A stretch of DNA of 64,000 nucleotides from Lentisphaeria bacterium (GTDB lineage Bacteria; Verrucomicrobiota; Lentisphaeria; Oligosphaerales; CAITYL01): the NCBI GenBank assembly GCA_041648735.1, contig JBAZOO010000011.1, forward strand, positions 13,540-77,539, written 5' to 3'. The position numbers and the translations under genes are program-made. Positions 11,987-64,000 of this stretch are shown here, piece after piece. Within the stretch, counting starts at the first letter, position 1. Each line of letters opens with the position of its first letter. The notes under the pieces are model-generated. The model made no database searches and was not told where the DNA came from. It worked only from the letters and a program-made list of their open reading frames with translations.

Positions 11987-13063
11987 TCAACCGGCGGCGG
12001 CCGCGGCGGGGCGGGGCGGGCGGAGCACGTGGCCGGGGCCGGCGGCGACGCGGCGGCCGAGGGCCTCGATGCGGCGGGTGATGCAGCCGCGGCAGTGGTG
12101 GGCGTCGTCGCCCAGGCAAATCTTGCCGGGATAGATTTCGTAGAGCGGCCGGCGGTCGGTGGGGGTGACGTTGGGCATGACGACGTTGGCGCCGGCCTGG
12201 AGCGCCTTTTCGCGGCCGTGCGGGTCGAGGGAGCCCATGGCGGTGGTCGCGGGGATGTGGGCCCAGGGGAAGGCGAGGCGGAGGACGGCGACGAGGCGCA
12301 GGGTCTGCTCGACCGTGCCGCCGGCGGCGCCCGCCAGGGGGGTCTGGGGATGGGGGATGAAGGGGCCGACGCCGATCATCTCCGCGCCCAGCTCGTGGAG
12401 CCAGAGGACATCGGCGGCGAGCATTGCCGGGGTTTGCCCCGGCAGGCCGGTCATGACGCCGGAGCCGAGCTGGTAGCCAAGCTCCTTGAGGGTGAAGAGG
12501 CAGGCTTGGCGCGCCGCCAGGTAGCTGCCGTCGGGATGGAGCGCGGCGAAGAGCGCGGGGTCGGTGGTCTCGATGCGGAGCAGGTAGCGGTCGGCGCCGG
12601 CTTCGCGCCAGAGGCGGTAGGTTTCGCGGTCCCGTTCGCCGACGCTGAGGGTGACGGCGAGGTCCGTGGTTGCCTTGATGGCGCGCACCGCCGCCGCCAG
12701 CCGTTCGGCGGTGAACCAGGCGTCTTCGCCGGACTGGAGGACGACCGAGTGGTAGCCGAGGGCGGCGGCCTCCTGGGCGGCCTTGACGATCTCCTCCGGC
12801 GCGAGCCGGTAGCGCCCCGCCGTGGCATTGCCGTTGCGGAGTCCGCAATAGGCGCAGTTCCGGCGGCAGACGCTGGAGAACTCGATGAGGCCGCGGAGGT
12901 GGACCTCGTCGCCGACGGTGGTGGCGCGGCGCTGGTCGGCGGCGGCGAAGAGCCGGGGCGCGTCGGCGGCGGCGCAGTCGAGGAGGGGGACGAGCCATTC
13001 CGGGGCGGGGGGGGCGCCGGCGATGGCGAGTTCGAGGGCTTGGGCGAAGGTGAGGTTGGGCAT
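11987..13063 (-). CDS. hydE: radical SAM enzyme of the BioB/HydE/PylB group, HydE-like
   Basis: CRRNCAYCGLR cluster motif. The C-terminal ANVVMPNVTPTDRRPLYEIYPGKICLGDD..C..C resembles the Thermotoga HydE tail rather than BioB. Confidence 0.6.
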   Translation of the reverse strand: MPNLTFAQALELAIAGAPPAPEWLVPLLDCAAADAPRLFAAADQRRATTVGDEVHLRGLIEFSSVCRRNCAYCGLRNGNATAGRYRLAPEEIVKAAQEAAALGYHSVVLQSGEDAWFTAERLAAAVRAIKATTDLAVTLSVGERDRETYRLWREAGADRYLLRIETTDPALFAALHPDGSYLAARQACLFTLKELGYQLGSGVMTGLPGQTPAMLAADVLWLHELGAEMIGVGPFIPHPQTPLAGAAGGTVEQTLRLVAVLRLAFPWAHIPATTAMGSLDPHGREKALQAGANVVMPNVTPTDRRPLYEIYPGKICLGDDAHHCRGCITRRIEALGRRVAAGPGHVLRPPRPAAAAAG

Positions 13064-13072
13064 GGGCTGGGC

Positions 13073-13100
13073 GGATTCGGGATTTGCGAATTTCGGTTGC
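13073..13100 (-). repeat. G-poor (on coding strand) low-complexity leader directly upstream of the hydE-like start
   Basis: The minus strand reads GCAACCGAAATTCGCAAATCCCGAATCC, then 9 nt, then ATG. Same flavour as the spacers at 16206, 20293, 25183, 37030 and 54694. Confidence 0.5.
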
Positions 13101-13158
13101 CGCAGAGGTTTCAGGGGACACAGAGGGAATCACCGGGAGCGGTTCAGAATGGAACCGG

Positions 13159-14007
13159 TCAGAGGGCTTCGTTGAGGCTGCCGGTGCGGTAGCCTTGGAG
13201 GTCGAGGCTAACATAACGCCAGCCGAGGCGTTTGAGGGCGGCGGTGAGTTCGCCGCGGAGGTTGGGGTCGAGGAGGCGGGGGAATTCGGCGGGATCCAGT
13301 TCGAGGCGGGCGATGTCGCCGTGGTGGCGGACGCGGGCGCCGCGGAAGCCGGCGTCGCGGAGGCGGCTTTCGGCCGCTTCGACCTGGGCGAGGCTGGCGG
13401 CGGTGACGGGGGTGCCGTAGGGGAGGCGTGAGGCGAGGCAGGCCATGGCGGGCTTGTCGGCGGTGGGCAGTCCCAGGTGGCGGGAGAGTTCGCGGATTTC
13501 CGCCTTGGCCAGGCCGGCCTCCAGCAACGGGCTTTGCACGCCCAGCTCGGCGGCGGCGCGGCGGCCGGGGCGGTGGTCGCCGGTGTCGTCGGCATTGCTG
13601 CCTTCGAGGATGGTGGCGATGCCGCGGTTGGCGGCGGCCTGGCGCACGCCGGTGAAGAGGGCGTGTTTGCAGAAGTAGCAGCGGTCGGGGGGGTTGGCGG
13701 TGTAGCGCGGGTTGCGCATTTCCTCGGGGAAGATCACCAGGCACTCGACGCCGGTGGCGGCGGCGAACTGGCGGGCGAGGGCGAGTTCGTGGCGGGGCAG
13801 GCTGGGGGAGTCGCCGATGATGGCGAGGACGTTGGCCGGGCCGAGGGTGTCGGCGGCGACGCGGAGGAGGAAGCTGCTGTCCACGCCGCCGGAGAAGGCG
13901 ACGGCGGCGCGGCCGGCGGAGCGCAGCGCCGCCTGGAGCCGGTGCAGCTTCGCCGCCGCTGCCGGAGCCATGGGACTCATTGGACTCATAAGACTCATCG
14001 GACTCAT
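13159..14007 (-). CDS. larE: PP-loop ATP-pyrophosphatase, LarE-like sulfur transferase (TIGR00268-type)
   Basis: AFSGGVDSS PP-loop, CYFCK and ...ACLASRLPYG... motifs. GAAGGAAGG lies upstream of ATG 14007. The N-terminus is MSPMSLMSPMSPM. Confidence 0.75.
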   Translation of the reverse strand: MSPMSLMSPMSPMAPAAAAKLHRLQAALRSAGRAAVAFSGGVDSSFLLRVAADTLGPANVLAIIGDSPSLPRHELALARQFAAATGVECLVIFPEEMRNPRYTANPPDRCYFCKHALFTGVRQAAANRGIATILEGSNADDTGDHRPGRRAAAELGVQSPLLEAGLAKAEIRELSRHLGLPTADKPAMACLASRLPYGTPVTAASLAQVEAAESRLRDAGFRGARVRHHGDIARLELDPAEFPRLLDPNLRGELTAALKRLGWRYVSLDLQGYRTGSLNEAL

Positions 14008-50835: not shown

Positions 50836-51809
50836 CAGCCGGTGGCGCCCGGGGTTGGCGGCAGGACGGACTGCCGCTCGATCAACAAGTTGTCGACCAG
50901 GACCTCTTCCGGAGTGGCGTCGCTGGCGGCGAGCTTCCGCATGATCAGCGCCACGGCCTTTTCCGCCACGGTTTCCAACTGCTGGTCAATGGTGGTCATG
51001 GGGGGGGAGAGGAACTTGGAGTAGACCTTGTTCTCCATCGAGATGAGGGAGAGGTCGCCGGGGATTTCCAGCTTCAGCGCCTTGAGGATGTTCCAAATCT
51101 CGATGACGGCGTCCTCCATGCCGATGAAGATCGCGGTCGGCTTCTGGGCCAGCAGTTGGTTGACCACCAGCAGCGGCGAATTGCTGCACAGGGAGCCGCA
51201 GAGCCTGGAGCCGATCTCGATGCCGTGCTCCCGGTAGAATTGCTGGAAGCCGGCGACGCGCTGCATATTGCCCCAGTCCCGGCTGGCCACGATGATCCCC
51301 GCCTGGCGGTGCCCATGCGCCAGCAGGTGCTCCGCCGCCAGCCGCCCGCTCTGTTCATGGTTGCTGGCCACGGTGGAGCAACTGTCCACCCCCGGATAGT
51401 TGACCACGAGCTTCGGGAGGTTTTCCAGCCGGCAGAGAAGCTCTTTCACCGCGTCGTTCCAGGGCAGCGCCAGGACGGCGTCGGCATGGCATTCCCGGAA
51501 CTGGTCCAGGTTCGACTTGGTGAAGATCTCGATGGCGACGTCATGGCCGGAGAGCCGCTCCACCAGGGCCGAGAGCATGGCGGGGATGTAGTGCTGGCGG
51601 GCGCCGTCATGCACGTCAATGAACAGCGCCACCGTCGTCTTGCGCGCCTTCAGCCTGGGGCGGAAGTTGTACTGGGCCGCCGCCCGCAGGACGGCCTGGC
51701 GCGTCTCCGGCGAAGTCCGCCCCCGGCTGTTCAGCACCCGGCTGACCGTCGCGTAGGAGACGCCGGTGATTTTCGCCAGGTCGTAGATGGATTTGGGGCG
51801 GCTTTTCAT
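50835..51809 (-). CDS. LacI-family transcriptional regulator
   Basis: [23 protein letters not shown] plus a periplasmic-binding-like sugar domain. Start at ATG 51809. Confidence 0.88.
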
Positions 51810-51900
51810 TTTCGGTCTTGGGGTTGAATCCACGGATTCCACGAATTTCCACGACTGGGTTTGGTGTCAATCCGGGCAATCCGTGGACAACAGAATTCAC

Positions 51901-53910
51901 TCAGCCGTTCCGCCGGCGGAGCAGCCCGACCGCGCCGAGGCAGAGCAGCGCCAGCGCCGCCGGCTCGGGGACGACGGAGATGCCATTGAGCACGATGGAC
52001 GAGCCTGTGTCCGTCAACGTCAGCGTGCCGCTGGGGGTGAACCCAAGGGCGGTGATGTCAAAGTCCGGGGTGAGATCCAGCGTTCCGCCCGCCGTCGTGT
52101 AGGTGAACAACGTGGTCGTGCCGCCGTCCTGGTAGCCGGTCGTCAGAGTCAGGTTCCAGCCGTCGTTCAGGGTCAGCGTGCCATTGACGTCCACCAGGTC
52201 GCCGCCCTCGAAGATCGCCGTGGCGCCCGCGGTGCCGACGCCGCCGGTGAGGCTCAGGTTGGAGTTGAAGGTCAGGGTCCCCGGGCTGGTGCCGGGGGCG
52301 AGCTTGCCGCCGCTGTTGACGGTGGTCGCGCCGCCAATGATGCCGGAGCCGCCCAGGGTGGCCGTGTTGGCCACGGTGACCGCCCCGTTTGCGGCGGAGT
52401 TGTCGCCGTTGACGACCAGCGTGCCCACGTTGACCAACGTGGTGCCATCGTAGGTGCTGTTCCCTTGGAGCGTCCAGGTGCCGGCGCCGTCCTTTTGCAC
52501 GTTGGTCGCGTAGGTTGTGCCGTCGCTGATGACGCCGGTGACCTTGCTGCCGGTGGAAGTGCCGTCCAAGAGAAGCCTATTTGCGCCCGTTCCGGCACTG
52601 GTATTGGTCACGCTGGCGATGGTCAGGTTGGCTGTCGTCGGGTTAAACTTGGCAGTTTTCGAGTTGCCGCCGATGGTGACGGCGCCCACGGCCAGGCTGT
52701 AGCCATTGGCGCCGGTGACATGCAGGGTGCCGCCGTTCGCGCCGGTGGTGACGTTCCCAAGAGCAAGAGTCTTGTTGGTGCCCGTGCCGCTTTCCCGGTC
52801 CACGTCAATCGTGCCATTGACACCGCTGGCACCACTGATGACCAGATTGTTGCCATAGGTCAGCGTTTGGCTGCTGGAGTCGTTCTGCCCGTTGGCACGG
52901 AGCTGCAAGATGCTGCTGCCGGTATTGGCGCCGAAGGTGACAATATTGCTGCTGTTACCCAGACCATTTGTCGTAATGGTTTGGTTGCCTGCTCCATAGA
53001 CAGTCGAATCGGTTACACGAACCGTCGCTGCCCCGTTGTTGATCGTCATGCCGTGCGTGCTGTCACCGAAGGTATTGGCACCGGAAATCACGGTTGTCCC
53101 CGTCCCGCCGACGCTGAATCCGCCTGTTGCCCCGGAGATTGCGCCGCTTATGGTCAGCGTGCCGTTGTTCGTGATGTTAAAGCTGGCCCCGCTGCCGTTT
53201 ACGATCAAGCTGCCGCTAAGCGTGAGCGAGCCGGCATCGACGTTGAGACGCGAACCGATGCCTCCGGCTTGGGCATTAATGGTGCCCGCCCACTCATTGC
53301 TGCCGCTGATGTTTCGCAGCGCACCACCGTTGGAAATCCCCGCGCCGTTTAACGCGAGAGTTTCGCCCGTGACGGTAATGCCTCCCTGAAGTTGGAGCGC
53401 GGCGCCGCTGGTTATCGAGGTGCTTCCAGCGGTGCTGCCCAAGGCCGTGTTATTTTGGATGTTCAGGATTCCGGCGCTGATCGTGGTTGTCCCGCTATAG
53501 GTATTCGCGGTGGAGATGGTCAGCGTGCCGGTGCCGCTCTTGGTCAGCGTGCTCGAACCGCCAATGGAGCCGGAACCAGTGAAGCTCCAATTGCCGTCGT
53601 TGGCCCCGACCGTGACGGAAGTGGGACTGACCGTGCCGGAGATCGTGATGGCTTCGCCGGTGGCGGCGTCGAACACGGCGGCGTTGTCGTCGGTCCACTC
53701 GACCGGGCCGGGCAGCCAGTTGGCGTTGCCGGTGGTGAGCGACCAGGTGTCGGTGGGGCCGGCGATGTCCCAGGTCAAAGTCGCCGCCGCGGCGAAGCCC
53801 GCCGTGGCGAGCGCGGCGCTGGCCGCCACCAATCCCAGTCTCAAGGGTGTCGTCGTCGTCCTGCGTGGCATGGGTTGCCTCCTGGTGTGGGTGTTGAGGG
53901 TCAGGTTCAT
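51901..53910 (-). CDS. PEP-CTERM-anchored surface protein with autotransporter-associated beta-strand repeats
   Basis: Repeated ..G.LT.SG.I.G...L.K.G.GTLTL.. units, and a C-terminal VPEPAALALLCLGAVGLLRRRNG sorting signal. Confidence 0.85.
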   Translation of the reverse strand: MNLTLNTHTRRQPMPRRTTTTPLRLGLVAASAALATAGFAAAATLTWDIAGPTDTWSLTTGNANWLPGPVEWTDDNAAVFDAATGEAITISGTVSPTSVTVGANDGNWSFTGSGSIGGSSTLTKSGTGTLTISTANTYSGTTTISAGILNIQNNTALGSTAGSTSITSGAALQLQGGITVTGETLALNGAGISNGGALRNISGSNEWAGTINAQAGGIGSRLNVDAGSLTLSGSLIVNGSGASFNITNNGTLTISGAISGATGGFSVGGTGTTVISGANTFGDSTHGMTINNGAATVRVTDSTVYGAGNQTITTNGLGNSSNIVTFGANTGSSILQLRANGQNDSSSQTLTYGNNLVISGASGVNGTIDVDRESGTGTNKTLALGNVTTGANGGTLHVTGANGYSLAVGAVTIGGNSKTAKFNPTTANLTIASVTNTSAGTGANRLLLDGTSTGSKVTGVISDGTTYATNVQKDGAGTWTLQGNSTYDGTTLVNVGTLVVNGDNSAANGAVTVANTATLGGSGIIGGATTVNSGGKLAPGTSPGTLTFNSNLSLTGGVGTAGATAIFEGGDLVDVNGTLTLNDGWNLTLTTGYQDGGTTTLFTYTTAGGTLDLTPDFDITALGFTPSGTLTLTDTGSSIVLNGISVVPEPAALALLCLGAVGLLRRRNG

Positions 53911-54131
53911 CGTCCTCTCCTGTTTTTGCCGCTGCCGCGGCACGGTTGCGATCCGGTTTGGGTTGGGTTGGGCTGGGCTGGCGCGCCGTGGCGGCGGCCG
54001 GCGGCGTAAGGTCGTGTAACTCTTACGCAATGGGGCAAGTATATAACTCGGACCGGCCGTTGTCAACCAGCCAGTCCAAAAAAAACGCCGCCAAGCTGGA
54101 AAAGGCGGCGGCCGGCACGCCAGGGGCAGGG

Positions 54132-54692
54132 TCAGGGAAGGTCCGGCCCGGCGGCGGCCAGGATCGCGGCGGCGGCGGCGGCCAGGTCGGCGGCCAGGGT
54201 CTCGGCCGCGGTGGCGGTGCCGGGCTCGCCGATGCGGACGGCGCGGCAGCCGGCGGCGTGCCCGGCCGCCACGTCGCTCTCCTTGTCGCCGACCATGAAG
54301 GAGTGGCGCAGGTCGAGGGCGAGGGCGGCGGCGGCCCGGCGCAGCATTCCCGGCTGCGGCTTGCGGCAGTCGCAGGCGTCGGCGGCGAGGTGCGGGCAGT
54401 AGTCAATGGCGGCCAGGGGGACGCCGTGGGGGGTGAGCAGTTCCTGGAGCCGTTCGTGCTGGGCGTGGAGGAGTTCGCGGCTGAAATAGCCGCGACCGAT
54501 GCCGGACTGGTTGGTGACCAGCACCAGCAGGAAGCCGGCGTCGTGGAGCCGGCGCAGGGCTTCTCCGGCGCCCGGCAGCAGGTTCACCCCCTCGACGGTG
54601 GCGAGGTAGCCATGGTCGGGGATCAGGGTGCCGTCGCGGTCGAGGAAGACGGCGCGGCGTTTGGGGATGGGGGTGGGGGCGGGTGGGGGCAT
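54132..54692 (-). CDS. gmhB: D-glycero-beta-D-manno-heptose 1,7-bisphosphate 7-phosphatase (HAD-IIIA)
   Basis: FLDRDGTL, VTNQSGIGRGYF, CDCRKPQPGM and VGDKESD motifs. Confidence 0.85.
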   Translation of the reverse strand: MPPPAPTPIPKRRAVFLDRDGTLIPDHGYLATVEGVNLLPGAGEALRRLHDAGFLLVLVTNQSGIGRGYFSRELLHAQHERLQELLTPHGVPLAAIDYCPHLAADACDCRKPQPGMLRRAAAALALDLRHSFMVGDKESDVAAGHAAGCRAVRIGEPGTATAAETLAADLAAAAAAILAAAGPDLP

Positions 54693-54693
54693 G

Positions 54694-54758
54694 GCCGATT
54701 TTCGATTTTCGAATGCCGAAGGCCGAATGCCGAATGCCGATTTTCGAATGCCGAATGG
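54694..54758 (-). repeat. intercistronic spacer built almost entirely of GATTTTC / GAATGCC-type short repeats
   Basis: GCCGATTTTCGATTTTCGAATGCCGAAGGCCGAATGCCGAATGCCGATTTTCGAATGCCGAATGG fills the lemA-gmhB gap and ends 1 nt from the gmhB ATG. Confidence 0.8.
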
Positions 54759-54764
54759 TTCCGG

Positions 54765-55337
54765 TCAGAACTTGACGGGCGGGGCTTCGCGCTCGGCGGC
54801 GGCAATCTGCCAGAGTTCGCGCGGGCGGAAGTGGAAGAGGCCGGCGATGAGGTTCTTGGGGAAGAGGCAGATTTCGGTGTTGTAGACGGTGGCGCTGTCG
54901 TTGTAGTTCTGGCGGGCGAAGGAGATCCGGTTTTCCGTCGAGGTCAGCTCTTCCTGGAGCGCCTTGAAGTTCTCGTTGGCGCGGAGCTGGGGATAGGCTT
55001 CGACTTGGAGCATGAACCCGCGCAGGGCGCCGCCGAGGGCGGTCTCGGCCTGGATCTGGGCGCCGACGCCTTCGGTGCGGGCGTCCAGGGCGCGGGAGCG
55101 GGCGCGGGTGACGTTTTCCAGCAGCCCCTTCTCGTGGGCGGCGTAGCCCTTGACCGTCTCCACCAGGTTCGGGATGAGGTCATGGCGGCGCTTGAGCTGG
55201 ACGTCAATCTGGGCCCAGCCGTTGTCCACCAGCTTCTGGCGGGCCACGAGGCCGTTGTAGATCCCCACGGCCACGAGGCCAGCGAGGCCGGCGGCGGCGA
55301 GGAGGATCAGGGCGACGAGAAGGGTGGGGGCAATCAT
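54765..55337 (-). CDS. lemA: LemA-family membrane protein
   Basis: N-terminal TM helix, ..YNGLV..R..V...W.QIDVQLKRRHDLIPNLVETVKGYA.HEK..L..V..AR.. is the canonical LemA pattern. Confidence 0.9.
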   Translation of the reverse strand: MIAPTLLVALILLAAAGLAGLVAVGIYNGLVARQKLVDNGWAQIDVQLKRRHDLIPNLVETVKGYAAHEKGLLENVTRARSRALDARTEGVGAQIQAETALGGALRGFMLQVEAYPQLRANENFKALQEELTSTENRISFARQNYNDSATVYNTEICLFPKNLIAGLFHFRPRELWQIAAAEREAPPVKF

Positions 55338-55486
55338 GGGCGCACCTCCGGGGAGCGGTTTCCCGCCACGATACCGCCGGACGCGGGGAAGTCAACTGCC
55401 TGGGGAATCCGGCGCGGGCGCCGCGGGCGGGATTATAGTTCCCCTTTCCAACCCATATTTTCCGCAACCTCGAGGATGGATTCGCC

Positions 55487-57136
55487 ATGGAAAAATTGGA
55501 TCGCCTGCCCCGTTTCCAGCCCCGCCGCGGCCCGGTCGTGCTGGTGATCATGGACGGCGTCGGCTACGGCAAGTTCGCCGAGGGCGACGCCGTGCGCTCC
55601 GCCCTGAAGCCGAACCTGGACTGGCTGCACGGCAACTGCCCGAACACGCGGCTCAAGGCGCACGGCACGGCCGTGGGGCTGCCGAGCGACGCCGACATGG
55701 GGAACTCGGAGGTCGGCCACAACGCCATCGGCTGCGGCCGCGTCTTCGACCAGGGCGCGGCGCTGGTCAGCAAATCCATCGAAGGCGGCGCCCTGTTCCA
55801 GCGCGAGAGCTGGCGCGAGATCACCGGCAACGTGCTGGCGAAGGGCTCGACGCTGCACTTCCTCGGCCTCCTTTCGGACGGCAATGTGCATAGCCACATC
55901 GACCATCTGCGGGCGATGCTCCGCCAGGCGAAGGCGGAGGGGGTCAAGCGGATCCGAGTCCACATCCTGCTGGACGGCCGCGACGTCGGCGAGACTTCGG
56001 CCCTGGACTACGTGGAGCCCTTCGAGGCCTTCCTCCGGGAGCTGGACACCGACGGCTGCGACTACCGCATCGCCTCCGGCGGCGGCCGCATGCACATCAC
56101 CATGGACCGCTATGGCGCCGACTGGAGCATGGTCGAGCGCGGCTGGAAGACGCACGTCCTCGGCGAGGGGCGGCAGTTCGCCAGCGCCCGCGAAGCGATC
56201 GAGACCTACCGCCGGGAGACCGGGGCGATCGACCAGGACCTGGGGGCCTTCGTCATTGCCGAGGGCGGCCAGCCGGTGGGGGCGGTCGCCGACGGCGATT
56301 CGGTGGTGTTCTTCAACTTCCGGGGCGACCGCGCCCTGGAGATCACGGCGGCCTTCGAGCAGGACGCCTTCGACAAGTTCGACCGGATCCGCCGGCCCCA
56401 GGTCTGCTACGCCGGGATGATGGAGTACGATGGCGACCGGCACGTGCCCAAGCGCTACCTGGTGGTGCCGCCGGCCATTGACCGGACCATGGGCGAGTTC
56501 CTCTGCGCGCTCGGGCTGCGCACCCTGGCCGTCTCCGAGACCCAGAAGTACGGGCATGTCACCTACTTCTACAACGGCAACAAGTCGGGGAAGATTGACG
56601 AGAAGCTGGAGGAGTATGTGGAGATCCCGTCGGACGTGGTGCCCTTCGAGCAGCGGCCGTGGATGAAGGCGGCGGAGATCACCGACCTGGTGGTCAAGGC
56701 CATTGCCGCCGGCAAGCACGACTTCATCCGCCTGAACTACCCGAACGGCGACATGGTCGGGCACACCGGCGTCTATGCCGCGACGCAGGTCGCCGTCGAG
56801 ACGGTCGACCTGGGGCTCGGCCGGCTCATGAAGGCGGTGGCGGCGGCCGGCGGCGTGCTGGTGGTGACCGCCGACCATGGCAACGCCGACGACATGTTCG
56901 AGCACAAGAAGGACGGCGCCGTGCTGGTCGAGAACGGGGTGAAGAAGGTCAAGACCGCGCATTCCCTCAACCCGGTGCCCTGCATCATCTACGACCCCGA
57001 GGGCAAGGGCGAGTACGCGGCGGAGCTGCGGACCGGGCTGGGGATCAGCGCCATCGCCGCCACCTGCCTGAACCTGCTGGGCTACCAGGCCCCGGCCGAC
57101 TACGATCCGAGCGTGCTCGACTTCCAGGAGGACTGA
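55487..57136 (+). CDS. gpmI: 2,3-bisphosphoglycerate-independent phosphoglycerate mutase
   Basis: VLVIMDGVG, MGNSEVGHNAIG, LLSDGNVHSH, YPNGDMVGHTG and TADHGNAD motifs. Confidence 0.92.
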   Translation: MEKLDRLPRFQPRRGPVVLVIMDGVGYGKFAEGDAVRSALKPNLDWLHGNCPNTRLKAHGTAVGLPSDADMGNSEVGHNAIGCGRVFDQGAALVSKSIEGGALFQRESWREITGNVLAKGSTLHFLGLLSDGNVHSHIDHLRAMLRQAKAEGVKRIRVHILLDGRDVGETSALDYVEPFEAFLRELDTDGCDYRIASGGGRMHITMDRYGADWSMVERGWKTHVLGEGRQFASAREAIETYRRETGAIDQDLGAFVIAEGGQPVGAVADGDSVVFFNFRGDRALEITAAFEQDAFDKFDRIRRPQVCYAGMMEYDGDRHVPKRYLVVPPAIDRTMGEFLCALGLRTLAVSETQKYGHVTYFYNGNKSGKIDEKLEEYVEIPSDVVPFEQRPWMKAAEITDLVVKAIAAGKHDFIRLNYPNGDMVGHTGVYAATQVAVETVDLGLGRLMKAVAAAGGVLVVTADHGNADDMFEHKKDGAVLVENGVKKVKTAHSLNPVPCIIYDPEGKGEYAAELRTGLGISAIAATCLNLLGYQAPADYDPSVLDFQED

Positions 57137-57154
57137 GCCGGACCGGGGATGGGG

Positions 57155-57209
57155 CGCCCGCCGCCGCCTTGCCGGCGGGGGCAATAAAAGTTTGGGGCGG
57201 GCGTTTTTT
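57155..57209 (+). terminator. possible intrinsic terminator after gpmI (branched GC stem followed by T6)
   Basis: CGCCCGCC ... GGCGGGCG TTTTTT. The long internal loop makes it atypical. Confidence 0.35.
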
Positions 57210-57278
57210 GGTTGAAGGCGCGCCGCCGGACGGTCCGGGCGGTGCGGACTTCGCAACCGCCCCGAGAAGGAATCCCCC

Positions 57279-57650
57279 ATGAAACCGACAGCGATCCTCC
57301 CCGCCGCCCTGCTGGCGTTGCTGGCCACGGCGGCCGTGCCGCTCTTCGCCCAAGCTGAAGGCGGCGCACCACCGGCGACCCAGGAACAGCCGGCACCGGG
57401 CGGCAAGAACCGCGAGATTCACGGCAAAGGCCGGTGGCAACGTGGCGAAGGCCGTGGCGCAAAGGGCCTGACCCTGCGCGAGCGCATCGAGAAGTGCGAA
57501 CGGCTCACGGCCGAACAGAAGGCGGAGCAGCGGGAGGCCGCGCGGAAGTTCCGCGAGGAACAGCGGGGCGAGACCCGCGGGCGGCTCCAGAAAATGCACC
57601 GGGAAGGCCGGCCGGAAAGCCAGCCCGCGGGTGGCGAAGCCGCGAAGTGA
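57279..57650 (+). CDS. small secreted protein with an LTXXQ motif (Spy/CpxP-like?)
   Basis: Signal peptide MKPTAILPAALLALLATAAVPLFAQA. Highly charged helical body containing LTAEQKAEQ. Confidence 0.55.
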   Translation: MKPTAILPAALLALLATAAVPLFAQAEGGAPPATQEQPAPGGKNREIHGKGRWQRGEGRGAKGLTLRERIEKCERLTAEQKAEQREAARKFREEQRGETRGRLQKMHREGRPESQPAGGEAAK

Positions 57651-57885
57651 GCGGTGCCATCTTTTCCCCTGACGCCAGCGGCGGCCGGAGCCTCACGGGT
57701 TCGGCCGCCGCCGGTTTTGGCGGGCGGGGGTTTCGCCCGCCAGGCCGGGAAAACCGGGCCTGGGCCGGGCCGGCGGCCGGGCAAGTCCACCGCTTCTATC
57801 CGACTTGTAAAAACAGCCACGGCTTTTAGTTTATGGAAGGATGCATCGAGGGTGGCGGCTTCATTGGAAACGATTTCATCACACC

Positions 57886-59277
57886 ATGGACAACAACAGC
57901 CCACACGCAGCCGAGCCGAAGGCCAAGATCCTGGTGGTCGACGATGAGGTGAGCATCGTCGAAGTGCTCAAGGCGCTCCTCAAGCGGGAAGGGTTCCAGG
58001 TCAAGACCACCGGGGACGGCACGGCGGCGCTGAAAATGCTGGGCGAGGAGCCGTTCGACCTGGTGATCTCCGACATCCGGATGAAGCCGATGGACGGCAT
58101 CTCGCTCTTGCAGCAGATCCGCCAGATCCAGAGCCACATCGCGGTGATCATGATGACCGCCTACGCCACCGTGGAAACCGCCGTGGAGGCGATGAAGGAG
58201 GGGGCGTTCGACTACATCTGCAAGCCGTTCAAGATTGACGAGCTGCTGCTCACCGTCCAGCGGGCCCTCTCCTGCGAGCACGCCTTGGCCGAGAACGAAG
58301 TGCTGAAGGAGAGCTTCCGCACCACCAAATACCACTACGGCATGGTGGGCGACAGCGAGAAGATGGAACGGGTCTACGAGCTGGTCGAGCGCGTCGCCCG
58401 CACCGAGAGCACCGTGCTGCTCATGGGTGAGACCGGGATCGGCAAGAAGATGGTGGCCAAGGCGTTGCACGCCGCCAGCCGCCGGGCCGAACAGCCTTTG
58501 CTCTTCCTCAACTGTGCCTCCCTGCCCGAAACCTTGCTGGAGACCGAGCTGTTCGGCTTCCGCAAGGGGGCCTTTGACGGGGCCGTCAGGGACAAGAAGG
58601 GGCTGTTCGAACAGGCCAGCGGCGGCACCTTGGTGCTCGAGGAGATCGGCTCCATGCCCCTGGGGATGCAGTCCAAGCTGCTCAAGGTCCTCCAGGAACG
58701 GGCGATCCTGCCGCTGGGCGCGGCGCAGCCGCTGCCGGTGGACGTCCGGATCATCGCGACCACCAACGAGCATCTGGAGGCGAAGATCAAGTCGGGGCAG
58801 TTCCGCGAAGACCTCCATGTCCGGATCAGCGTCATCCCCATCGAGGTGCCGCCCCTCCGGGACCGGCCCGGGGACGTGACCTTGCTGGTGAACCATTTCC
58901 TGGGGCAGATCAACGAGCGGGAAGGCAAGCGGCTCACCCTCGAGAAGCAGGCGTTCCGGGCCTTGAAGAACTATGACTGGCCGGGCAACGTCCGGGAGCT
59001 GGAGAACGCGCTCACCCGGGCCGGCGCCCTTTGCCAGGGGAACCTGATCACCATCAACGACCTGCCGCCCGAGGTGCAGGTCGCCGGCACCCGGGAGGAC
59101 ACCGCCGCCAGTGACGCCGCCACCCAGCTCCGCGGCGTCTCCCTCAAGGCCTTTCTCCGGGCCAAGGAACACGACTACATCCAATTCGTGCTCAACCAGT
59201 GCGGCGGCAACAAGGAGAAGGCCGCCGAAGCCCTCGGCATCAGCCTGGCCACCTTCTACCGCAAGTATGGGGAATGA
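57886..59277 (+). CDS. sigma54-dependent response regulator (NtrC family: REC + AAA+ + Fis-type HTH)
   Basis: ILVVDDE...DLVISDIRMP-like REC, GETGIGKK Walker A, GAFDGA (GAFTGA-like), and a C-terminal ..GGNKEKAAEALGISLATFYRK HTH. Start at ATG 57886. Confidence 0.9.
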   Translation: MDNNSPHAAEPKAKILVVDDEVSIVEVLKALLKREGFQVKTTGDGTAALKMLGEEPFDLVISDIRMKPMDGISLLQQIRQIQSHIAVIMMTAYATVETAVEAMKEGAFDYICKPFKIDELLLTVQRALSCEHALAENEVLKESFRTTKYHYGMVGDSEKMERVYELVERVARTESTVLLMGETGIGKKMVAKALHAASRRAEQPLLFLNCASLPETLLETELFGFRKGAFDGAVRDKKGLFEQASGGTLVLEEIGSMPLGMQSKLLKVLQERAILPLGAAQPLPVDVRIIATTNEHLEAKIKSGQFREDLHVRISVIPIEVPPLRDRPGDVTLLVNHFLGQINEREGKRLTLEKQAFRALKNYDWPGNVRELENALTRAGALCQGNLITINDLPPEVQVAGTREDTAASDAATQLRGVSLKAFLRAKEHDYIQFVLNQCGGNKEKAAEALGISLATFYRKYGE

Positions 59278-59278
59278 G

Positions 59279-59824
59279 ATGAACGGGCGCGGCCGGCGGC
59301 TGGCTTCAATTGGTGGCGCGTGGCGGGCCATCGCCATCGGCTTTGGGGCCATCGTGCTGTTGGCGGGCTGCGGACTCCGCAACCGTTCCTTGGCCGAGGG
59401 CGGCCGCCCCCGGGCCGAATACTGGCTGGCGATCTACCGCCTGGCCCCCGCCGGCACCGCCGATGGCGTGCCCACCCACGAGCTGGCCGACTTCACCGGC
59501 AAGCCTTACCGCGTCCTCCAGTCCCCCGTGCTGACCTCCGCCTTCATTCCCGCCGTGGAAGCGGTGCCGGGGGAGGGCGAAGCCGGCCCTACCGCCTTGA
59601 AGCTGGCGCTGGACGGCACGGGGCACAAGCTCTGGTTCCAAGCCTGCCACGACCCTGCTGGCGACACCGCCGTGCTGGTGGTCGATGGCTTTGTCCGCGC
59701 CACCTTCCCGCTCCGCCGCGACCAGGCCGGGTGCGAGTCCCTGGTCGTCCCCGCCGCCTGGGGTGCGGCCGAGGCGGCGGGGATCGTCCAGCGCGCCCCG
59801 CGGAATTACCGGGCGGTCCGCTGA
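59279..59824 (+). CDS. hypothetical lipoprotein
   Basis: The ATG is 1 nt after the regulator's stop. Lipobox VLLAGC. No family recognised. Confidence 0.6.
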   Translation: MNGRGRRLASIGGAWRAIAIGFGAIVLLAGCGLRNRSLAEGGRPRAEYWLAIYRLAPAGTADGVPTHELADFTGKPYRVLQSPVLTSAFIPAVEAVPGEGEAGPTALKLALDGTGHKLWFQACHDPAGDTAVLVVDGFVRATFPLRRDQAGCESLVVPAAWGAAEAAGIVQRAPRNYRAVR

Positions 59825-59925
59825 GCCGCCGCCGGGGGGCGGGGGGGAGGGTGGCGGCGCTTGTGCCCCTTGCCCCTTCCCCCTTTCGCGCGCCGTCGCC
59901 GCGCCTTGGAGTGCGGCGAGGATCG

Positions 59926-59966
59926 CCCGCTGGAGTTCACGCTTCAGCGTGGGCTCGGAAAGCGCC
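59926..59966 (-). repeat. 41-nt dispersed repeat, copy 2 (inverted relative to 1425-1465)
   Basis: The reverse complement GGCGCTTTCCGAGCCCACGCTGAAGCGTGAACTCCAGCGGG matches 1425-1465 at 38 of 41 positions. Confidence 0.75.
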
Positions 59967-59986
59967 ATCTTCATCTGTCCCCCGCC

Positions 59987-60175
59987 GCCGCCAGCGAACG
60001 CCTTGTCCAGTACATGGCCCGCTGCCCCTTCAGCCTGGAACGCTTCGTCAACGTCAGCCCCGAAGGCCAGGTCTTCCACCGCCATCGAGAAGATCCTGCG
60101 CCACACCGGCCTCTGGCGCGACCCCCAGCCCGCGCCCCGCCGCCCCCGCCCAAGGAGGAACCGCTGCCCGCAAGC
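59987..60175 (+). pseudogene. degraded fragment resembling the C-terminal region of an IS91-family (Y2/HUH) transposase
   Basis: Frame A reads ..ERLVQYMARCPFSLERFVNVSPEGQVF... The adjacent frame reads ..IEKILRHTGLW... Frame A then resumes with ..PARAPPPPPKEEP... These motifs are recalled from IS91-type transposase C-termini. They are joined by frameshifts or a deletion, and no intact ORF remains. Confidence 0.4.
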
Positions 60176-60204
60176 ACTCCGCCGCGGCTTCCCCGCCAGC
60201 GTCC

Positions 60205-60278
60205 TTCTTCCCCAATCCCCAACCCAAAATCGGCAATCCAAAATCCAAACCGGAGTACGACTGACCTGGGCGATTCAT
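60205..60278 (+). repeat. 74-nt segment X, copy a (C/A-rich leader ending in ATG)
   Basis: Identical to 63927-64000. It contains CCCCAATCCCCAACCCAAAATCGGCAATCCAAAATCCAAACC low-complexity sequence, like other leaders in this window. Confidence 0.9.
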
Positions 60279-60347
60279 GAACCGCACTCCGCGGCGTCCT
60301 CCGTGCCCCCCTGAGACCTCTGTGGTGAATAATTTCAGGTCACGGGT

Positions 60348-60376
60348 TTGACGCCCCGATTCCGGCAGGATAAAGT
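60348..60376 (+). promoter_or_regulatory. sigma70-like promoter candidate (TTGACG-17 nt-TAAAGT) pointing into the low-GC cassette region
   Basis: Hexamers and spacing read directly. No credible protein gene lies between it and repeat copy R1. Confidence 0.4.
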
Positions 60377-60556
60377 CCCGCCATGCAGCGTCACCTGTGG
60401 GAACCGCAACCGTACGCCCGAAAACCGGCCGGGAACATGCCAAACCTCACCCAAAACCCCACGCCGCCCCATTCCCCCGCCGGAACCCTCTCCGGCGTCG
60501 CCGCCACGTCGGTGGAATCGCCGATTTCGGGGTCAGCTTCACCCTCTCACCCCCCG

Positions 60557-60603
60557 TATCCCCCCCGTCCGATCCCCCCCCTGAAATCAAAATTCCTATC
60601 AGT
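60557..60603 (+). repeat. direct repeat R, copy 1 (2 mismatches to copies 2 and 3)
   Basis: TATCCCCCCCGTCCGATCCCCCCCCTGAAATCAAAATTCCTATCAGT. Confidence 0.9.
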
Positions 60604-60720
60604 AACTGGGAGATCAAGGGAGTTGAAACCATATTGAGACTGCGGATTGCTGAGCTGACGAAAACGGACCTCGAACAATCTCCTGCAGGCGACGTCCTAA
60701 AGGCCGCGCCTGAGGAGTAA

Positions 60721-60850
60721 CGATGGGGCCGACGCTGCGCGTCGGCCCCATCGGTGCGGGTGAGCCACCGGCGCTATGGGCCGCGCAGCGCGGCCCATCA
60801 CTCGGGTCGAGTACGACCCGCCCCTGCGGGGCCGGCGACTCACCCGCACC
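60721..60850. other. cluster of nested perfect GC-rich palindromes (REP-like or structured-RNA-like element)
   Basis: Hairpin 1 at 60721-60753 has a 15-bp stem and 3-nt loop. A 12-bp long-range pairing (60753-60764 with 60839-60850) encloses three further hairpins: 60776-60798, 60803-60820 and 60821-60831. Confidence 0.7.
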
Positions 60851-60920
60851 GATGGGCGCCCCAGAACCGCAAATGACAATGCGGCACAGTGGGTAAGAAT
60901 GAGCACATGGAGACACCCCT

Positions 60921-62138
60921 ATGACATGGCTGAACAATATCGGTCGCGCGTTTTCGCTGCGATGGCACCTTCGTGGCCTTCGCAGTGCACACTGGCAAAA
61001 GAGGGTCTCGTCAGCCCAGGCACTTGCAGGCATGAAGGATGCACGCAGCGTGGAAGCCCTCATACAGTGCTTACGTGATACCAATACCGACGTGCAGGCG
61101 GCATGTGCCCATGCACTCGAAACCCTCGGGGACAAACGCGCCATTGAACCTTTGGTGACATTGGTAAACGCGCAAACACGGGATTGCGGCGACCCCGATT
61201 ACATTGTCCGTTTCACGGACAGCCACGAGCGCCTCCATACAATAGCCCACACTCTCGCCGTCATTGGCCAGAATGATGCTGTTCAACCCTTGTTCGATCA
61301 ACTCACGAACTCACCAAACCAGTTGGCCTGCACGATCTTGGCCAAAGAACTGGCAAGCATCGGGGCGCAAGCCGTACCGGCATTGCTGGAGGCCCTAGCC
61401 AATAAAGGACCACACGTTAGGAGATGTGCTGCCATCGCGCTTGGCTCCCATCCAGATAAGCGTTCATTGCTTCCCCTCATCAAGGCACTGAGAGACTCCG
61501 ATGATGGCGTACGGAAAGAAGCAGCAGAAGCCTTGCGGAAGAGGGGATGGCGTCCGGAGACTGTCGATCAGAGACTTGACATGGTGATTGCCCAAAAGGA
61601 TTGGAGTCGGCTGTCTGAGATGCGTGATGAACTTACGGAGGAATTACGGACGCGGAGCACAGAGGCAATGCTTGCCGAGTTCAACTACCGACCGGCGTTT
61701 GATCCAATCGGCTGGGAAGGAACAGGGTGGAGTAGTTGCGACCTGGATTGGCACGCACGCAATAAGATTGCATACCAGTTGAGAGATCTTGCCGTTCTCA
61801 CTGTGCCAACACTCATCCGGTCTCTCTCCAATACAAGCGACAAGATTCGGAACATCGCGGCAGATGTGCTGTTGCATATCGGAACGCCGTCTCTTAGTCC
61901 GTTGACGAAGTATCTCACGGACACCTCAAAGCCAAACGCCTACAGCGAGCCAATACCTGAAGACACCGCCGAACGAATTGTCGATTGCCTGACTGCGGCA
62001 AGAGAGTTCAAGATCGAATATGAAAAAGCGAAATACAGTTCTGAGAGCATTATCTCCACGAATGAGGTGTACAATGACGTCGTGGGTGTCAACACGACGG
62101 TTTCTAAGCATATGATTTTCAGGCTACTGCAGTTGTGA
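60921..62138 (+). CDS. HEAT-repeat (PBS-lyase/HEAT_2-like) protein, low-GC
   Basis: Repeated units ..A..ALAGMKDARSVEALIQCLRD.N.DVQAACAHALETLGDKRAIEPL.. and ..VRRCAAIALGSHPDKRSLLPLIKALRDSDDGVRKEAAEAL... GGAGA lies 7 nt upstream of the ATG. Confidence 0.8.
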   Translation: MTWLNNIGRAFSLRWHLRGLRSAHWQKRVSSAQALAGMKDARSVEALIQCLRDTNTDVQAACAHALETLGDKRAIEPLVTLVNAQTRDCGDPDYIVRFTDSHERLHTIAHTLAVIGQNDAVQPLFDQLTNSPNQLACTILAKELASIGAQAVPALLEALANKGPHVRRCAAIALGSHPDKRSLLPLIKALRDSDDGVRKEAAEALRKRGWRPETVDQRLDMVIAQKDWSRLSEMRDELTEELRTRSTEAMLAEFNYRPAFDPIGWEGTGWSSCDLDWHARNKIAYQLRDLAVLTVPTLIRSLSNTSDKIRNIAADVLLHIGTPSLSPLTKYLTDTSKPNAYSEPIPEDTAERIVDCLTAAREFKIEYEKAKYSSESIISTNEVYNDVVGVNTTVSKHMIFRLLQL

Positions 62139-62222
62139 CCGTAGCGATGGGCAGCATGCGTCCCATCCCGAGGGATTAGTTAGAGCAAACAAACAGAGCG
62201 CCAACAAGAGCGCGGACCACTA

Positions 62223-62254
62223 CGTTTCACCCGGCGCGGACGCCGGGTGAAACG
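62223..62254. other. perfect 14-bp hairpin (CGTTTCACCCGGCG-cgga-CGCCGGGTGAAACG) between the HEAT gene and the zinc-ribbon gene
   Basis: Read directly. No T-tract follows it. A weaker GATGGG...CCCATC palindrome lies at about 62146-62168. Confidence 0.7.
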
Positions 62255-62297
62255 AGGGTCACGCTCGCCGTTGGCATTCAGAGAAAGGAGAAGTGCG

Positions 62298-62549
62298 ATG
62301 TCGGAAGTCAAGTTCGTGTGTCCGAAGTGCAATCAGTCTCTTGAGGGCGACGAGTCCGTGCGCGGACAGACAGTCGAGTGTCCATCCTGCCATACGCAAA
62401 TCGTAGTGCCTTCAGGACAGAAAGAGCAAAACATCAACCAAGGAAAGGACGGGAGCAACATGAACAGTGCATTTCCAACGATCTCCATCCAGGGAAACAA
62501 AGTTGACGCGACGCGGCATGTTATTCCCCCCGTCCGATCCGCCCCCTGA
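62298..62549 (+). CDS. small zinc-ribbon protein (CPxC...CPxC)
   Basis: AAGGAG lies 7 nt upstream of the ATG. MSEVKFVCPKCNQSLEGDESVRGQTVECPSCHTQIVVP. The last 9 codons and the stop lie inside repeat R copy 2. Confidence 0.7.
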   Translation: MSEVKFVCPKCNQSLEGDESVRGQTVECPSCHTQIVVPSGQKEQNINQGKDGSNMNSAFPTISIQGNKVDATRHVIPPVRSAP

Positions 62550-62568
62550 AATCAAAATTCCTATCAGT
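62521..62568 (+). repeat. direct repeat R, copy 2
   Basis: TTATTCCCCCCGTCCGATCCGCCCCCTGAAATCAAAATTCCTATCAGT, identical to copy 3. Confidence 0.95.
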
Positions 62569-62653
62569 AATTGATGCTGACGGCGTGGTCACCATTAGCG
62601 ACGAGGAATGGCAATGAAGCGAATCGCCGTCATTATCGGCTGCTTGGGAGTGC

Positions 62654-63817
62654 TTGTCCATACAGCACTTGGCCAGATGGCGCGTCCCGCAGGGGGGGGG
62701 CCCGTTAGGGGCTACCCCGCGCCCCCCTACAGTTAGTCAATATGACCGTCTGCTGGTGGCGTATCTATGTGGGATCAAACAAATAGTTAAGAAGAATCAA
62801 GACAATGCTGACGCGGAATACCAAGCAGCCAAAGCCTCTTTCGAAAAACGCGCTGAAGAACTCAACAAGGCAGACATGGCCGCATTGCTTACCAAGCTTC
62901 GAACAGGGGCCAACGCGAACCCCGGCAATCGACTGGATCCCGACGAACCAGCAGAGACCACAATTTATCCCTATATATTGGGGAGTTCGCCCGCTTCGGC
63001 CCGCTTGGTTCAACAACTTTATCAGGACGGTCTGATCAAGGAGTGGCCCCGCTCGCTTTCCTTGCTATGGACACAGCCTGGGATATGCCACGAATGGCTA
63101 ACATTGATTGAGGCTGCGGCAACTGCTAGCCCCAACGACAAAAAACTTGCCGAATTTGCAGAGAAGTTACTGTACTCAAACGGATTCAAACAAGATCGAT
63201 ATCGTCCGTTGTTGCTCAAGCGAGCAGTGGAAATGCATGACGTTCGTTCCTTGGAGTTGTTGTTTTTTAGCAGAAATGCCATTACGGGGCGACTTCAAGC
63301 GAATGTCACTATTGAAAACTTGGCACTTGCCCGACAGTTATCCGGGAAAGGCCAACCGCTAAATATTCGACTGGCCTGTGCTCACTTCGCAACAGAAGTG
63401 TACAACTATTCACTAGCGGAAGAGATCTGCTTGAGTATCCTGCGTCAGGACTATCGCTGTGTGTTACAAGGCCCCAACAATAAACTCTCCAAGGAGGATG
63501 ACGAAGCAGATTCCGCCCTTTTACATGCTCGCCAAGCCGCGCTCACCTTAGGCTTCTACGGAATACGTAGCGAACCAATTTTCCAAGAGGTTTTTCGCTT
63601 GGCTACGTTAAACTCGCCAGACGCCTCCTCAATACCCGCGATCCCTGGTGCCACTCCCCCAAACGCTCAAACGCTTTTTCACTCACTCAGCCGTTTCGAT
63701 TGTGGCTACGCACACGGGTTACTGCTGCGCGTTCGCGAACTTCTTACCAAAGGAGCCTCTGATCTCTCTGATGACCTCACCCCTGACACCTCAGATCCCA
63801 TCAACCCCCCGGAGTAA
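62654..63817 (+). CDS. hypothetical helical protein, low-GC; the body is out of frame with an upstream SD+ATG+signal peptide (62614) across a G9 tract
   Basis: Long ORF with no family recognised. ATG 62614 is preceded by GAGGAA and encodes MKRIAVIIGCLGVLVHTALGQ. That frame stops at 62732-62734, and loss of one G at 62692-62700 would fuse the two frames. Confidence 0.6.
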   Translation: MSIQHLARWRVPQGGGPLGATPRPPTVSQYDRLLVAYLCGIKQIVKKNQDNADAEYQAAKASFEKRAEELNKADMAALLTKLRTGANANPGNRLDPDEPAETTIYPYILGSSPASARLVQQLYQDGLIKEWPRSLSLLWTQPGICHEWLTLIEAAATASPNDKKLAEFAEKLLYSNGFKQDRYRPLLLKRAVEMHDVRSLELLFFSRNAITGRLQANVTIENLALARQLSGKGQPLNIRLACAHFATEVYNYSLAEEICLSILRQDYRCVLQGPNNKLSKEDDEADSALLHARQAALTLGFYGIRSEPIFQEVFRLATLNSPDASSIPAIPGATPPNAQTLFHSLSRFDCGYAHGLLLRVRELLTKGASDLSDDLTPDTSDPINPPE

Positions 63818-63879
63818 ACCATGCGATCAGTCCTTCTGCTTAACACAGTGGCAGTCACCACAAGTCTCAGCATTTTGTC

Positions 63880-63927
63880 TTATTCCCCCCGTCCGATCCG
63901 CCCCCTGAAATCAAAATTCCTATCAGT
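63880..63927 (+). repeat. direct repeat R, copy 3
   Basis: Identical to copy 2. It abuts segment X copy b. Confidence 0.95.
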
Positions 63928-64000
63928 TCTTCCCCAATCCCCAACCCAAAATCGGCAATCCAAAATCCAAACCGGAGTACGACTGACCTGGGCGATTCAT
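63927..64000 (+). repeat. 74-nt segment X, copy b (runs off the window; ends in ATG at 63998)
   Basis: Identical to 60205-60278. Confidence 0.9.

Follow-up and report, generated by a model that had tools for sequence, protein, structure and literature searches.

Co-oriented arrays of foreign gene blocks and putative origin-end fragments of an IS91-family insertion sequence in Lentisphaerota

At the right end of a 64,000-nt stretch of a Lentisphaeria bacterium genome (contig JBAZOO010000011.1, positions 13,540–77,539; the whole stretch is called the window below), two gene blocks of low GC content lie between three direct copies of a 48-nt repeat, R. What kind of element does R belong to, and how did unrelated genes come to be lined up between its copies? 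The first-pass annotation, made from the window's letters alone, described a modular, recombination-generated array that could not be assigned to any known element class. The modular and directional layout holds, with junctions placed exactly at the repeat ends; the absence of a known class does not. The locus belongs to the IS91/ISCR class of rolling-circle elements, with origin-end derivatives that are probably miniature copies and with genes that look captured, and represents a new member of this family in Lentisphaerota.

The base composition is 68.6% GC across positions 1–59800 and falls to 55.7% in the first block (c1) and 51.9% in the second (c2). R (TTATTCCCCCCGTCCGATCCGCCCCCTGAAATCAAAATTCCTATCAGT) occurs three times, always on the + strand, at 60556/7–60603, 62521–62568 and 63880–63927. 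The second and third copies are letter-identical; no further copy is found elsewhere in the window, and none in 100 shuffles. A 74-nt segment, X, at 60205–60278 recurs at 63927–64000 with 74 of 74 positions matching, and its second copy is fused to the third repeat. The GC drop, the number and orientation of the repeats, the two blocks that they bound (HEAT and zinc-ribbon genes in c1, a single open reading frame (ORF) of 1.2 kb in c2) and the exact duplication of X were all claimed by the first-pass annotation and are reproduced here. The features of the array within the window are as follows, with REP denoting repetitive extragenic palindromic sequences and oriIS the origin end of the insertion sequence (IS).

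59926–59966, + strand: host REP-like hairpin repeat of 41 nt on the island's left edge, outside the IS
59990–60264, + strand: degraded 3´ part of an IS91-family (Y2 HUH) transposase gene, with the stop codon TGA at 60262–60264
60205–60278, + strand: X copy 1, read as the last 19 transposase codons and the stop codon, then 14 nt
60265–60555, + strand: U, putative non-coding oriIS region, homologous to U copies elsewhere
60556–60603, + strand: R1, putative last 48 nt of the oriIS end, directly adjoining U
60604–62520, + strand: block c1, 55.7% GC
62521–62568, + strand: R2, solo copy of the putative oriIS-terminal repeat
62569–63879, + strand: block c2, 51.9% GC
63880–63927, + strand: R3, solo copy of the putative oriIS-terminal repeat, fused to X copy 2
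63927–64000, + strand: X copy 2, start of a 5´-truncated X-U2-R4 fragment that continues beyond the window end

An arrangement of this kind could be produced by contigs mis-joined at repeats. Both R and U exist in several copies, every R interrupts the k = 31 unitigs, and two contigs used for comparison (L001 and L050; loci and contigs fetched for comparison carry L numbers) are alike on the left and unlike after R1, which mis-joining across U may explain. Against this, L001, an independent MEGAHIT contig from another sample, was assembled with k = 141, so that R is shorter than the word length; it has the same order, R1-c1-R2-c2-R3-X, and continues into another copy of 60279–60517, part of U2. 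L059, a second contig of the same genome from the Joint Genome Institute (JGI; 99,893 nt, another sample), is 99.99% identical to window 51032–64000 over the whole array. The R3/X junction is present in both contigs and in a unitig of single-copy depth from run X3 (63899–63956), and the blocks stand at roughly single-copy depth in four runs. The array is real, and we regard an assembly artefact as scarcely credible.

These contigs also show what lies past position 64000, where the first-pass annotation had suggested looking for a second copy of 60279–60556, another repeat and further blocks. L001 enters this second copy, and L059 contains all of them. In L059 (window coordinate = L059 coordinate + 51031), positions 12896–13292 match 60205–60603 with 96.75% identity, so that the R3/X-U2 copy ends in a fourth repeat, R4; L001 4364–4676 carries the second copy as well. 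Three more blocks follow, giving six co-oriented R copies in 7.2 kb.

L059, after R4: block c3, 311 nt, encoding a 53-amino acid membrane peptide; then R5
L059, after R5: block c4, 3.0 kb, 70% GC, five ORFs without a Pfam match; then R6
L059, after R6: block c5, 1.9 kb, 49.5% GC, two ORFs without a Pfam match

Contig depth in four metagenomes places the blocks at roughly single copy, U at ~3–5x and R at ~7–12x, and R-R tandem junctions exist elsewhere in the genome. The genome is present in samples from coal, landfill and groundwater (runs X1–X5). Polymorphism of the array in the population was not detected: its depth is near single-copy throughout, and the joints that appear to skip a block or to go back are R-R junctions of no assignable place.

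The identity of R becomes apparent from the DNA to its left. The first-pass annotation had noted a degraded IS91-like fragment upstream, and a transposase fragment is indeed found at ~59990–60145: amino acids 254–299 of the intact transposase of locus L011 match 59936–60082 with 59% identity (tblastn, E = 1.5e-12), and 60076–60145 is 98.6% identical to the segment of L001 and L050 that encodes ...AAIEKILRHTGLWRD (L011 amino acids 406–442). The remnant lacks ~250 N-terminal codons and has an internal deletion. X had been interpreted as the leader and start codon of a gene. We do not accept this reading; in the transposase frame X encodes ...FFPNPQPKIGNPKSKPEYD*, ending at the stop codon at 60262–60264, and is homologous to the L011 C-terminus (...FPDYD*) and to the L001 transposase. 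A comparison with copy 1 in L001 shows that X copy 1 is continuous with the upstream IS remnant. U shares 77–97% identity with copies in L048, L038, L031, L049, L050 and L059 (77–84% for window 60286–60556 against L048, L038 and L031) and ~63% with the copy in L011, which comes after the intact transposase gene. The TTGACG-17-TAAAGT promoter candidate of the first-pass annotation (60348–60376) matches the sigma-70 pattern and falls within U, as does a subterminal palindrome, GCCGGAACCCTCTCCGGC (60479–60496), which lies ~110 nt from the element end and is conserved among the U copies of the same type (type A, below). R then ends ...AAAATTCCTATCAG, ~340 nt past the transposase stop. The degraded fragment and the array are thus one object, the left part of which is a dead IS91-family element made up of tnpA (~59990–60264), U and R1.

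The last 21 nt of R (TGAAATCAAAATTCCTATCAG), referred to as the core, close the IS in both L011 and L046. A scan with the core against GTDB genomes, with one genome per species, returned 43 loci, nearly all in Lentisphaerota/Victivallales metagenome-assembled genomes (MAGs) and often many per genome; the 21 nt are identical at 43 loci of many MAGs. Two contexts can be distinguished. Type A consists of the full R, with a C-rich 5´ half followed by the core, and is either free-standing or preceded by a U-like stretch. In type B, the core comes after a sigma-70-like promoter (CTTGATT-17-CTATCTT). In either type, conservation breaks off sharply at ...CTATCAG, after which a single base is conserved, T in type A and C in type B. 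An intact IS91-family transposase gene lies directly upstream on the same strand in L011 and L046, and remnants lie there in L020, L036, L040, L001, L050 and the window. In L011, an intact 499-amino acid ORF (Y2_Tnp, PF04986, 1.1e-24; Zn_Tnp_IS91, PF14319, 8e-18) is followed by U, a region of ~450 nt, and then by R. In L046, the intact gene is followed by a perfect 13-bp hairpin, the promoter and the core; this hairpin is also found in L020 and lies ~85–100 nt from the end. Transposase homologues number 952 at E <= 1e-30, and among the matches listed both domains are present in 120 of 120.

The two types belong to two transposase subfamilies with 48% protein identity and different subterminal DNA, which share the same terminal 21 nt, and a genome that has one type does not have the other. 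Shared terminal nucleotides in mutually exclusive types would be expected if the end is recognised by a transposase, but not if it is a host repeat. The core closes the conserved region 200–480 nt past the stop codon in L011, L046 and the window. Likewise, as read from plasmid records, ISCR1 ends ...GGTTTATACTTCCTATACCC, exactly 232 nt past its stop codon, and ISCR2 ends ...GTTTATTCTTCCTATAC; the 232-nt point is the published ISCR1 oriIS boundary (PMC6218425), and the motif TTCCTAT is common to the termini of R, ISCR1 and ISCR2. Neither the window repeats nor a profile search of the fetched loci revealed an inverted copy of R or terminal inverted repeats. Together, these comparisons identify R, at the level of sequence, as the terminal 48 nt of the oriIS (right, 3´-of-transposase) end of a Lentisphaerota insertion sequence of the IS91 family (HUH Y2), U as the rest of the non-coding oriIS region, and X as the 3´ end of the transposase gene. 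The solo R copies and the second X-U-R are 5´-truncated element fragments that share a common right end.

The first-pass annotation was right that the array has no integron cores and no terminal inverted repeats, both of which are expected for IS91-family elements. It saw no recombinase; R and X-U nevertheless correspond to the 3´ part of an IS91-family element, whose Y2 HUH transposase gene lies upstream in L011 and L046. A cassette array of integron type, or one built by another site-specific recombinase with R as the recombination site, would also place short conserved repeats between co-oriented, mostly promoter-less genes of foreign composition. However, R has neither dyad symmetry nor paired cores of the attC type and is the end of an IS91-family element, and we give this explanation almost no weight. 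Pfam detected no integrase domain in any gene called within the array, the 9 kb upstream of it or the 8 kb downstream; on its flanks, the ORFs encode an NtrC-type regulator and the remnant of IS91.

The dispersal of R bears on a further possibility. The first-pass annotation would have given up its cassette array if R proved to be a generic repeat scattered over unrelated loci, and this is true in part: R is present at ~7–12 copies per genome by depth, at many loci and in many MAGs. R could then be a repetitive extragenic element of the host that serves as a landing pad for IS91, with the arrays formed by homologous recombination between its copies. R does outnumber U (~7–12 against 3–5) and is dispersed in many genomes, and 48 nt of identity could support RecA-mediated exchange. 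Several findings argue against this. Full-length R is absent from genomes with the type B IS, in which only the 21-nt core is present, attached to their own subterminal sequence; the R3/X junction is not obtainable by recombination between two R copies; the stuttered tail of L054 (below) indicates that end copies arise at the end itself; and the core contains the IS91-family end motif TTCCTAT. Moreover, R is not palindromic and corresponds to an IS end, while the true REP-like sequence of this region is the 41-mer at 59926–59966. A host landing pad is very improbable in our judgement.

Two other identities for R were rejected. As a known RNA or a tRNA-derived attachment site it has no match: the sole Rfam match (E <= 1, 56–64 kb) was a weak one to CRISPR-DR29, within a hairpin, and a tRNA scan gave nothing. 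As a protein-coding sequence it is implausible, as the three copies stand in different frames relative to their neighbours.

Some observations concern the ends of the elements more generally. Type B ends (L010, L013, L018, L020, L030, L035, L036, L042, L046 and L047) form the second IS91 subfamily; their promoter stops ~7 nt before the ATG that opens the terminal 21-mer ATGAAATCAAAATTCCTATCAG, and it could give rise to a leaderless outward transcript. The left (terIS) end was not delimitable by alignment of the upstream regions of six intact copies, which are too divergent and too rich in low-complexity sequence. In L056, L057 and L058, the intact IS91-family transposase genes of this clade are preceded by long arrays of low complexity (GCTCTTGCTCCTGCTCTTGC...).

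Arrays of this kind recur. Among all fetched loci, a profile search detected at least two R-like copies in 11, at spacings of 0.2–3.3 kb, and the copies are co-oriented in 11 of 11; with random orientation we estimate the chance of this at ~6e-5. L011, L012, L040 and L046 share the layout [tnpA or remnant - U - R] - block - R, and in L040 the block between U-R and R is 44% GC within DNA of 66–68% GC. The fragments form a nested series with a common right end and different starts, of 3–33 nt, 48 nt (R), ~97 nt, ~400–450 nt and the full element (L011 and L046). The X-U-R fragments of ~400–450 nt differ in their 5´ cut points (copy 2 of the window against L049), and the type B solo copies of ~97 nt start at the loop or the right arm of the subterminal hairpin. 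Distant relatives, whose transposases are 55–59% identical to that of L011, end in GGAAATCAAAACTCCTATCAG.

The shortest members of the series are found in L054 (8353–8560), where the oriIS end runs on into a microsatellite-like tail in which copies of that end become shorter and shorter. The tail comprises units of 23 and 33 nt, TCTATCAG, TTATCAG, TGTTATCAG, TATCAG and two of TTTCAG, then TATCAG, four of TAG, two of TTCAG, TCAG and two of TAG. In another sample, L055 (8353–8410) has the same left flank as L054 and a different tail. These tails look like the product of repeated abortive initiation and rejoining at the origin nick.

The behaviour of relatives suggests how such a series could form. 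Transposition of IS91 and IS801 starts at the right end (ori), runs into the element and normally stops at the left end, but often stops early or late (PMC13181058, PMC3189936), and one-ended transposition has been described for IS91 (work of Mendiola and de la Cruz, summarised in PMC13181058). Right-end fragments of IS801 of 229, 360 and 679 nt made up 26% of the insertions trapped in P. syringae (Bardaji et al. 2011, PMC3189936). Other IS801 insertions brought up to 1.4 kb of upstream DNA with them, and the transposase acts in trans (PMC3189936). The anatomy described here is that predicted by this mechanism.

We therefore propose, on the strength of comparative anatomy, that R and X-U-R are probably miniature right-end copies, that the blocks are foreign DNA that travelled with an origin stub, and that new units were joined at ...CTATCAG|T of a resident origin, the local transposase being dead. 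Rolling-circle transposition would start at oriIS and stop early, leaving the miniature right-end fragments. The low-GC blocks would have lain beside origin stubs and been moved along by one-ended transposition, with the transposase supplied in trans; since the local copy is dead, the activity would have to come from another one. Each new unit would be joined exactly at the origin junction (...CCTATCAG|T) of a resident R, which would give all copies the same direction and make each block start at the last base of an R. Outward transcription into the blocks probably also comes from the oriIS region, as it does in ISCR1.

Several observations weigh against this proposal. Beyond the T after ...CAG, no consensus tetranucleotide is visible at the target or the terminus. 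The start of type B fragments at the hairpin loop or arm is not obviously predicted by simple premature termination. Homologue searches with the c2 and HEAT proteins found no donor locus for the blocks. U1 and U2 differ by ~3%, so that the second copy is not a recent duplication in place, and this genome yielded no intact transposase of the subfamily. Finally, c5 (49.5% GC) comes after R6 with no R beyond it, and in L011 an R stands to the right of the block, yet low-GC DNA runs on past the last R. Low-GC DNA beyond the last R, as in L059 and L011, fits downstream cargo as well as, or better than, upstream cargo.

The last point touches on the polarity of capture: a block may belong to the R on its right, which is the direction canonical for IS91 and IS801, or to the one on its left. 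With the opposite polarity, a unit of the same family would consist of an oriIS stub and the DNA downstream, as in the variable region of ISCR1, and the stub would be mainly a portable outward promoter or leader. In the extended array a block follows every R, including the last, c5, which has no R after it, and in c2 to c5 a co-oriented gene starts 15–60 nt past the repeat (R2, R4, R5 and R6). The type B promoter ends just ahead of the ATG of the core, the oriIS of ISCR1 has functional outward promoters and a variable downstream region (PMC6218425), and one contig of an RNA run bridges c3-R5-c4. In addition, homology between L040 and L044 begins exactly at R and extends downstream (90.7%), while the upstream DNA is different; this homology may represent an orthologous host flank. 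In contrast, experiments with IS91 and IS801 yielded capture of upstream and not downstream DNA, the foreign block has R on its right in L011 and in L040, where R adjoins host-like DNA, and the downstream ORFs show no frame bias relative to the core (11/9/16). On balance we consider the opposite polarity unlikely, albeit a more serious contender than either of the explanations that place R outside the IS91 family.

The same frame count, taken over the first long downstream ORF, is not significant and led us to reject the core as the donor of an in-frame start or signal-peptide n-region (MKSKFLS...), cases of which had looked striking in L011, L018, L021, L031, L035 and L046 before the frames were counted. 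As for expression, contigs from the one RNA run cover c4 and parts of c1 in addition to the c3-R5-c4 bridge; this is weak evidence for read-through transcription across the array, and carry-over of DNA is possible.

The joining of units at the origin junction leads to a more tentative extension of our proposal, which we find possible rather than likely. The 48-nt oriIS stub could be a minimal module that IS91-family transposases mobilise in trans, with blocks added serially at the origin junction to give integron-like directional arrays transcribed from the oriIS outward promoter; the stuttered tail of L054 would be a small-scale trace of the same process.

The cargo of the blocks is foreign and cut at arbitrary points, as seen from its GC content (52–56% against 69%), its absent or distant homologues and its truncated gene ends. 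Both c1 and c2 open inside the 3´ end of a gene (60604–60720 and 62570–62617). The HEAT protein has no homologue above 33% identity and the only homologue of the 387-amino acid protein of c2 is itself; for neither was the donor locus found. The two blocks contain the following features.

60604–60720 (c1): 3´ tail of a truncated ORF
60722–60860 (c1): GC-rich structured element, -108 kcal/mol over 156 nt
60921–62138 (c1): HEAT-repeat gene, encoding a 405-amino acid HEAT_2 protein
62196–62278 (c1): second hairpin element (GCCAAC...GTTGGC), -58 kcal/mol over 101 nt
62298–62549 (c1): DUF7560 zinc-ribbon gene, 83 amino acids, with the stop codon inside R2
62570–62617 (c2): last 16 codons of an upstream gene, the TGA of which overlaps the ATG of the signal-peptide ORF
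62608/62614–62736 (c2): signal-peptide ORF
62654–63817 (c2): main ORF, 387 amino acids, without a Pfam family

In c2, a run of nine G residues (62692–62700) puts the signal-peptide ORF out of frame with the 387-amino acid ORF, and eight G would fuse both into one secreted protein; L001 likewise has nine G at this homopolymer. The c2 gene is either a pseudogene or subject to a homopolymer phase switch. In c1, the k = 31 unitigs break at both structured elements, neither of which matches an Rfam family. The depth of the GCCAAC...GTTGGC element is raised relative to its neighbours in two of the four metagenomes (~2x in X2, ~1.5x in X3). We considered these GC-rich hairpins as analogues of attC or terIS and rejected the idea: they lie away from the block boundaries and bear no resemblance to the terIS hairpins of L011 or L046.

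The edges of the island carry host repeats. The 41-nt REP-like hairpin GCCCGCTGGAGTTCACGCTTCAGCGTGGGCTCGGAAAGCGCCA at 59926–59966 also occurs on the - strand at window 1425–1465 and at L059 19156–19198. The bin 59802–59952 stands at ~4–5x single-copy depth, and loose ends put the boundary of the repeat at 59926 and 59961–59966. To the right, c5 is directly followed in L059 (18640–18825) by a high-GC fragment (...DYLVAGGDAGGKLAKARQLGIPVIGWEELL...) that reads by eye as the BRCT domain at the C-terminus of a LigA-like gene. The absence of a 5´ part close by suggests that this edge of the island has either undergone a deletion or captured a piece of a gene. A cluster of the REP-like host repeat lies beyond this fragment (L059 19156–19700) and reaches ~20x depth. 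The 41-mer stands on both sides, and the island's insertion site may have been a REP cluster.

In L001 (1–407) and L050 (1–406, reverse complement), what reads in translation as the C-terminus of an ISL3-family transposase adjoins another, different remnant of this IS91 element. The two contigs have a common left part up to R and different DNA beyond it; either the context truly differs or the contigs were mis-joined across the 350-nt U.

How does this system compare with those already described? It shares with IS801 and IS91 a Y2 HUH transposase, a fixed right (ori) end with variable 5´ truncation, recruitment of adjacent DNA and the lack of terminal inverted repeats, as well as fragments that can be mobilised in trans. 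In contrast to IS801, with its fragments of 229–679 nt, the commonest fragment here is 48 nt long; judged by depth, the R stub is ~2–3 fold more numerous than U, and the genome showed no intact copy; the copies form co-oriented arrays with unrelated gene blocks of 0.3–3 kb between them; and no tetranucleotide consensus is visible at the left end. With ISCR1 and ISCR2 it has in common a transposase gene followed by a non-coding oriIS of 230–450 nt that ends ...TTCCTAT... and contains outward promoter-like elements (PMC6218425), with unrelated acquired genes directly beyond it. The palindrome and promoter pattern of U parallel those reported for the oriIS of IS91 and ISCR1. However, the transposase is only ~28% identical to those of ISCR elements, the host belongs to Lentisphaerota and not to Proteobacteria, and the cargo does not consist of resistance genes. 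Neither of the two ISCR loci compared has repeated solo 48-nt stubs between its genes, and the ISCR literature was not surveyed for them.

Helitrons follow the same HUH rolling-circle logic, with a subterminal hairpin near one end, truncated or chimeric copies, and capture of flanking gene fragments when the end signal is missed (PMC4778049). The present system is bacterial, has no helicase domain, differs in end sequence and belongs to another family, so that the likeness is one of analogy only. Integrons also consist of co-oriented, mostly single-gene foreign modules, each with a short conserved site next to a possible promoter, but there is no IntI here, and the repeat is a transposon end and not an imperfect palindrome of the attC kind.

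What sets this member of the family apart is the combination of 48-nt stubs two to three times commoner than U, recurrent co-oriented gene arrays and stutter tails at the origin end. IS91 and ISCR elements are known mostly from Proteobacteria, where they have been blamed for the assembly of resistance-gene regions, and the mechanism of capture is debated. The Lentisphaerota loci provide a natural, non-clinical system in another phylum, with graded origin-end fragments from 3 nt to full length and recurrent arrays, and they offer defined substrates (R alone, U-R and type B ends) with which the nick site and the carried flank could be determined. The core TGAAATCAAAATTCCTATCAG can serve as an annotation signature for acquired gene blocks in Lentisphaerota genomes. 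If the arrays are only passive debris, the finding amounts to a new IS91-family member; it would be of greater interest if the stub acts as an active minimal cassette tag.

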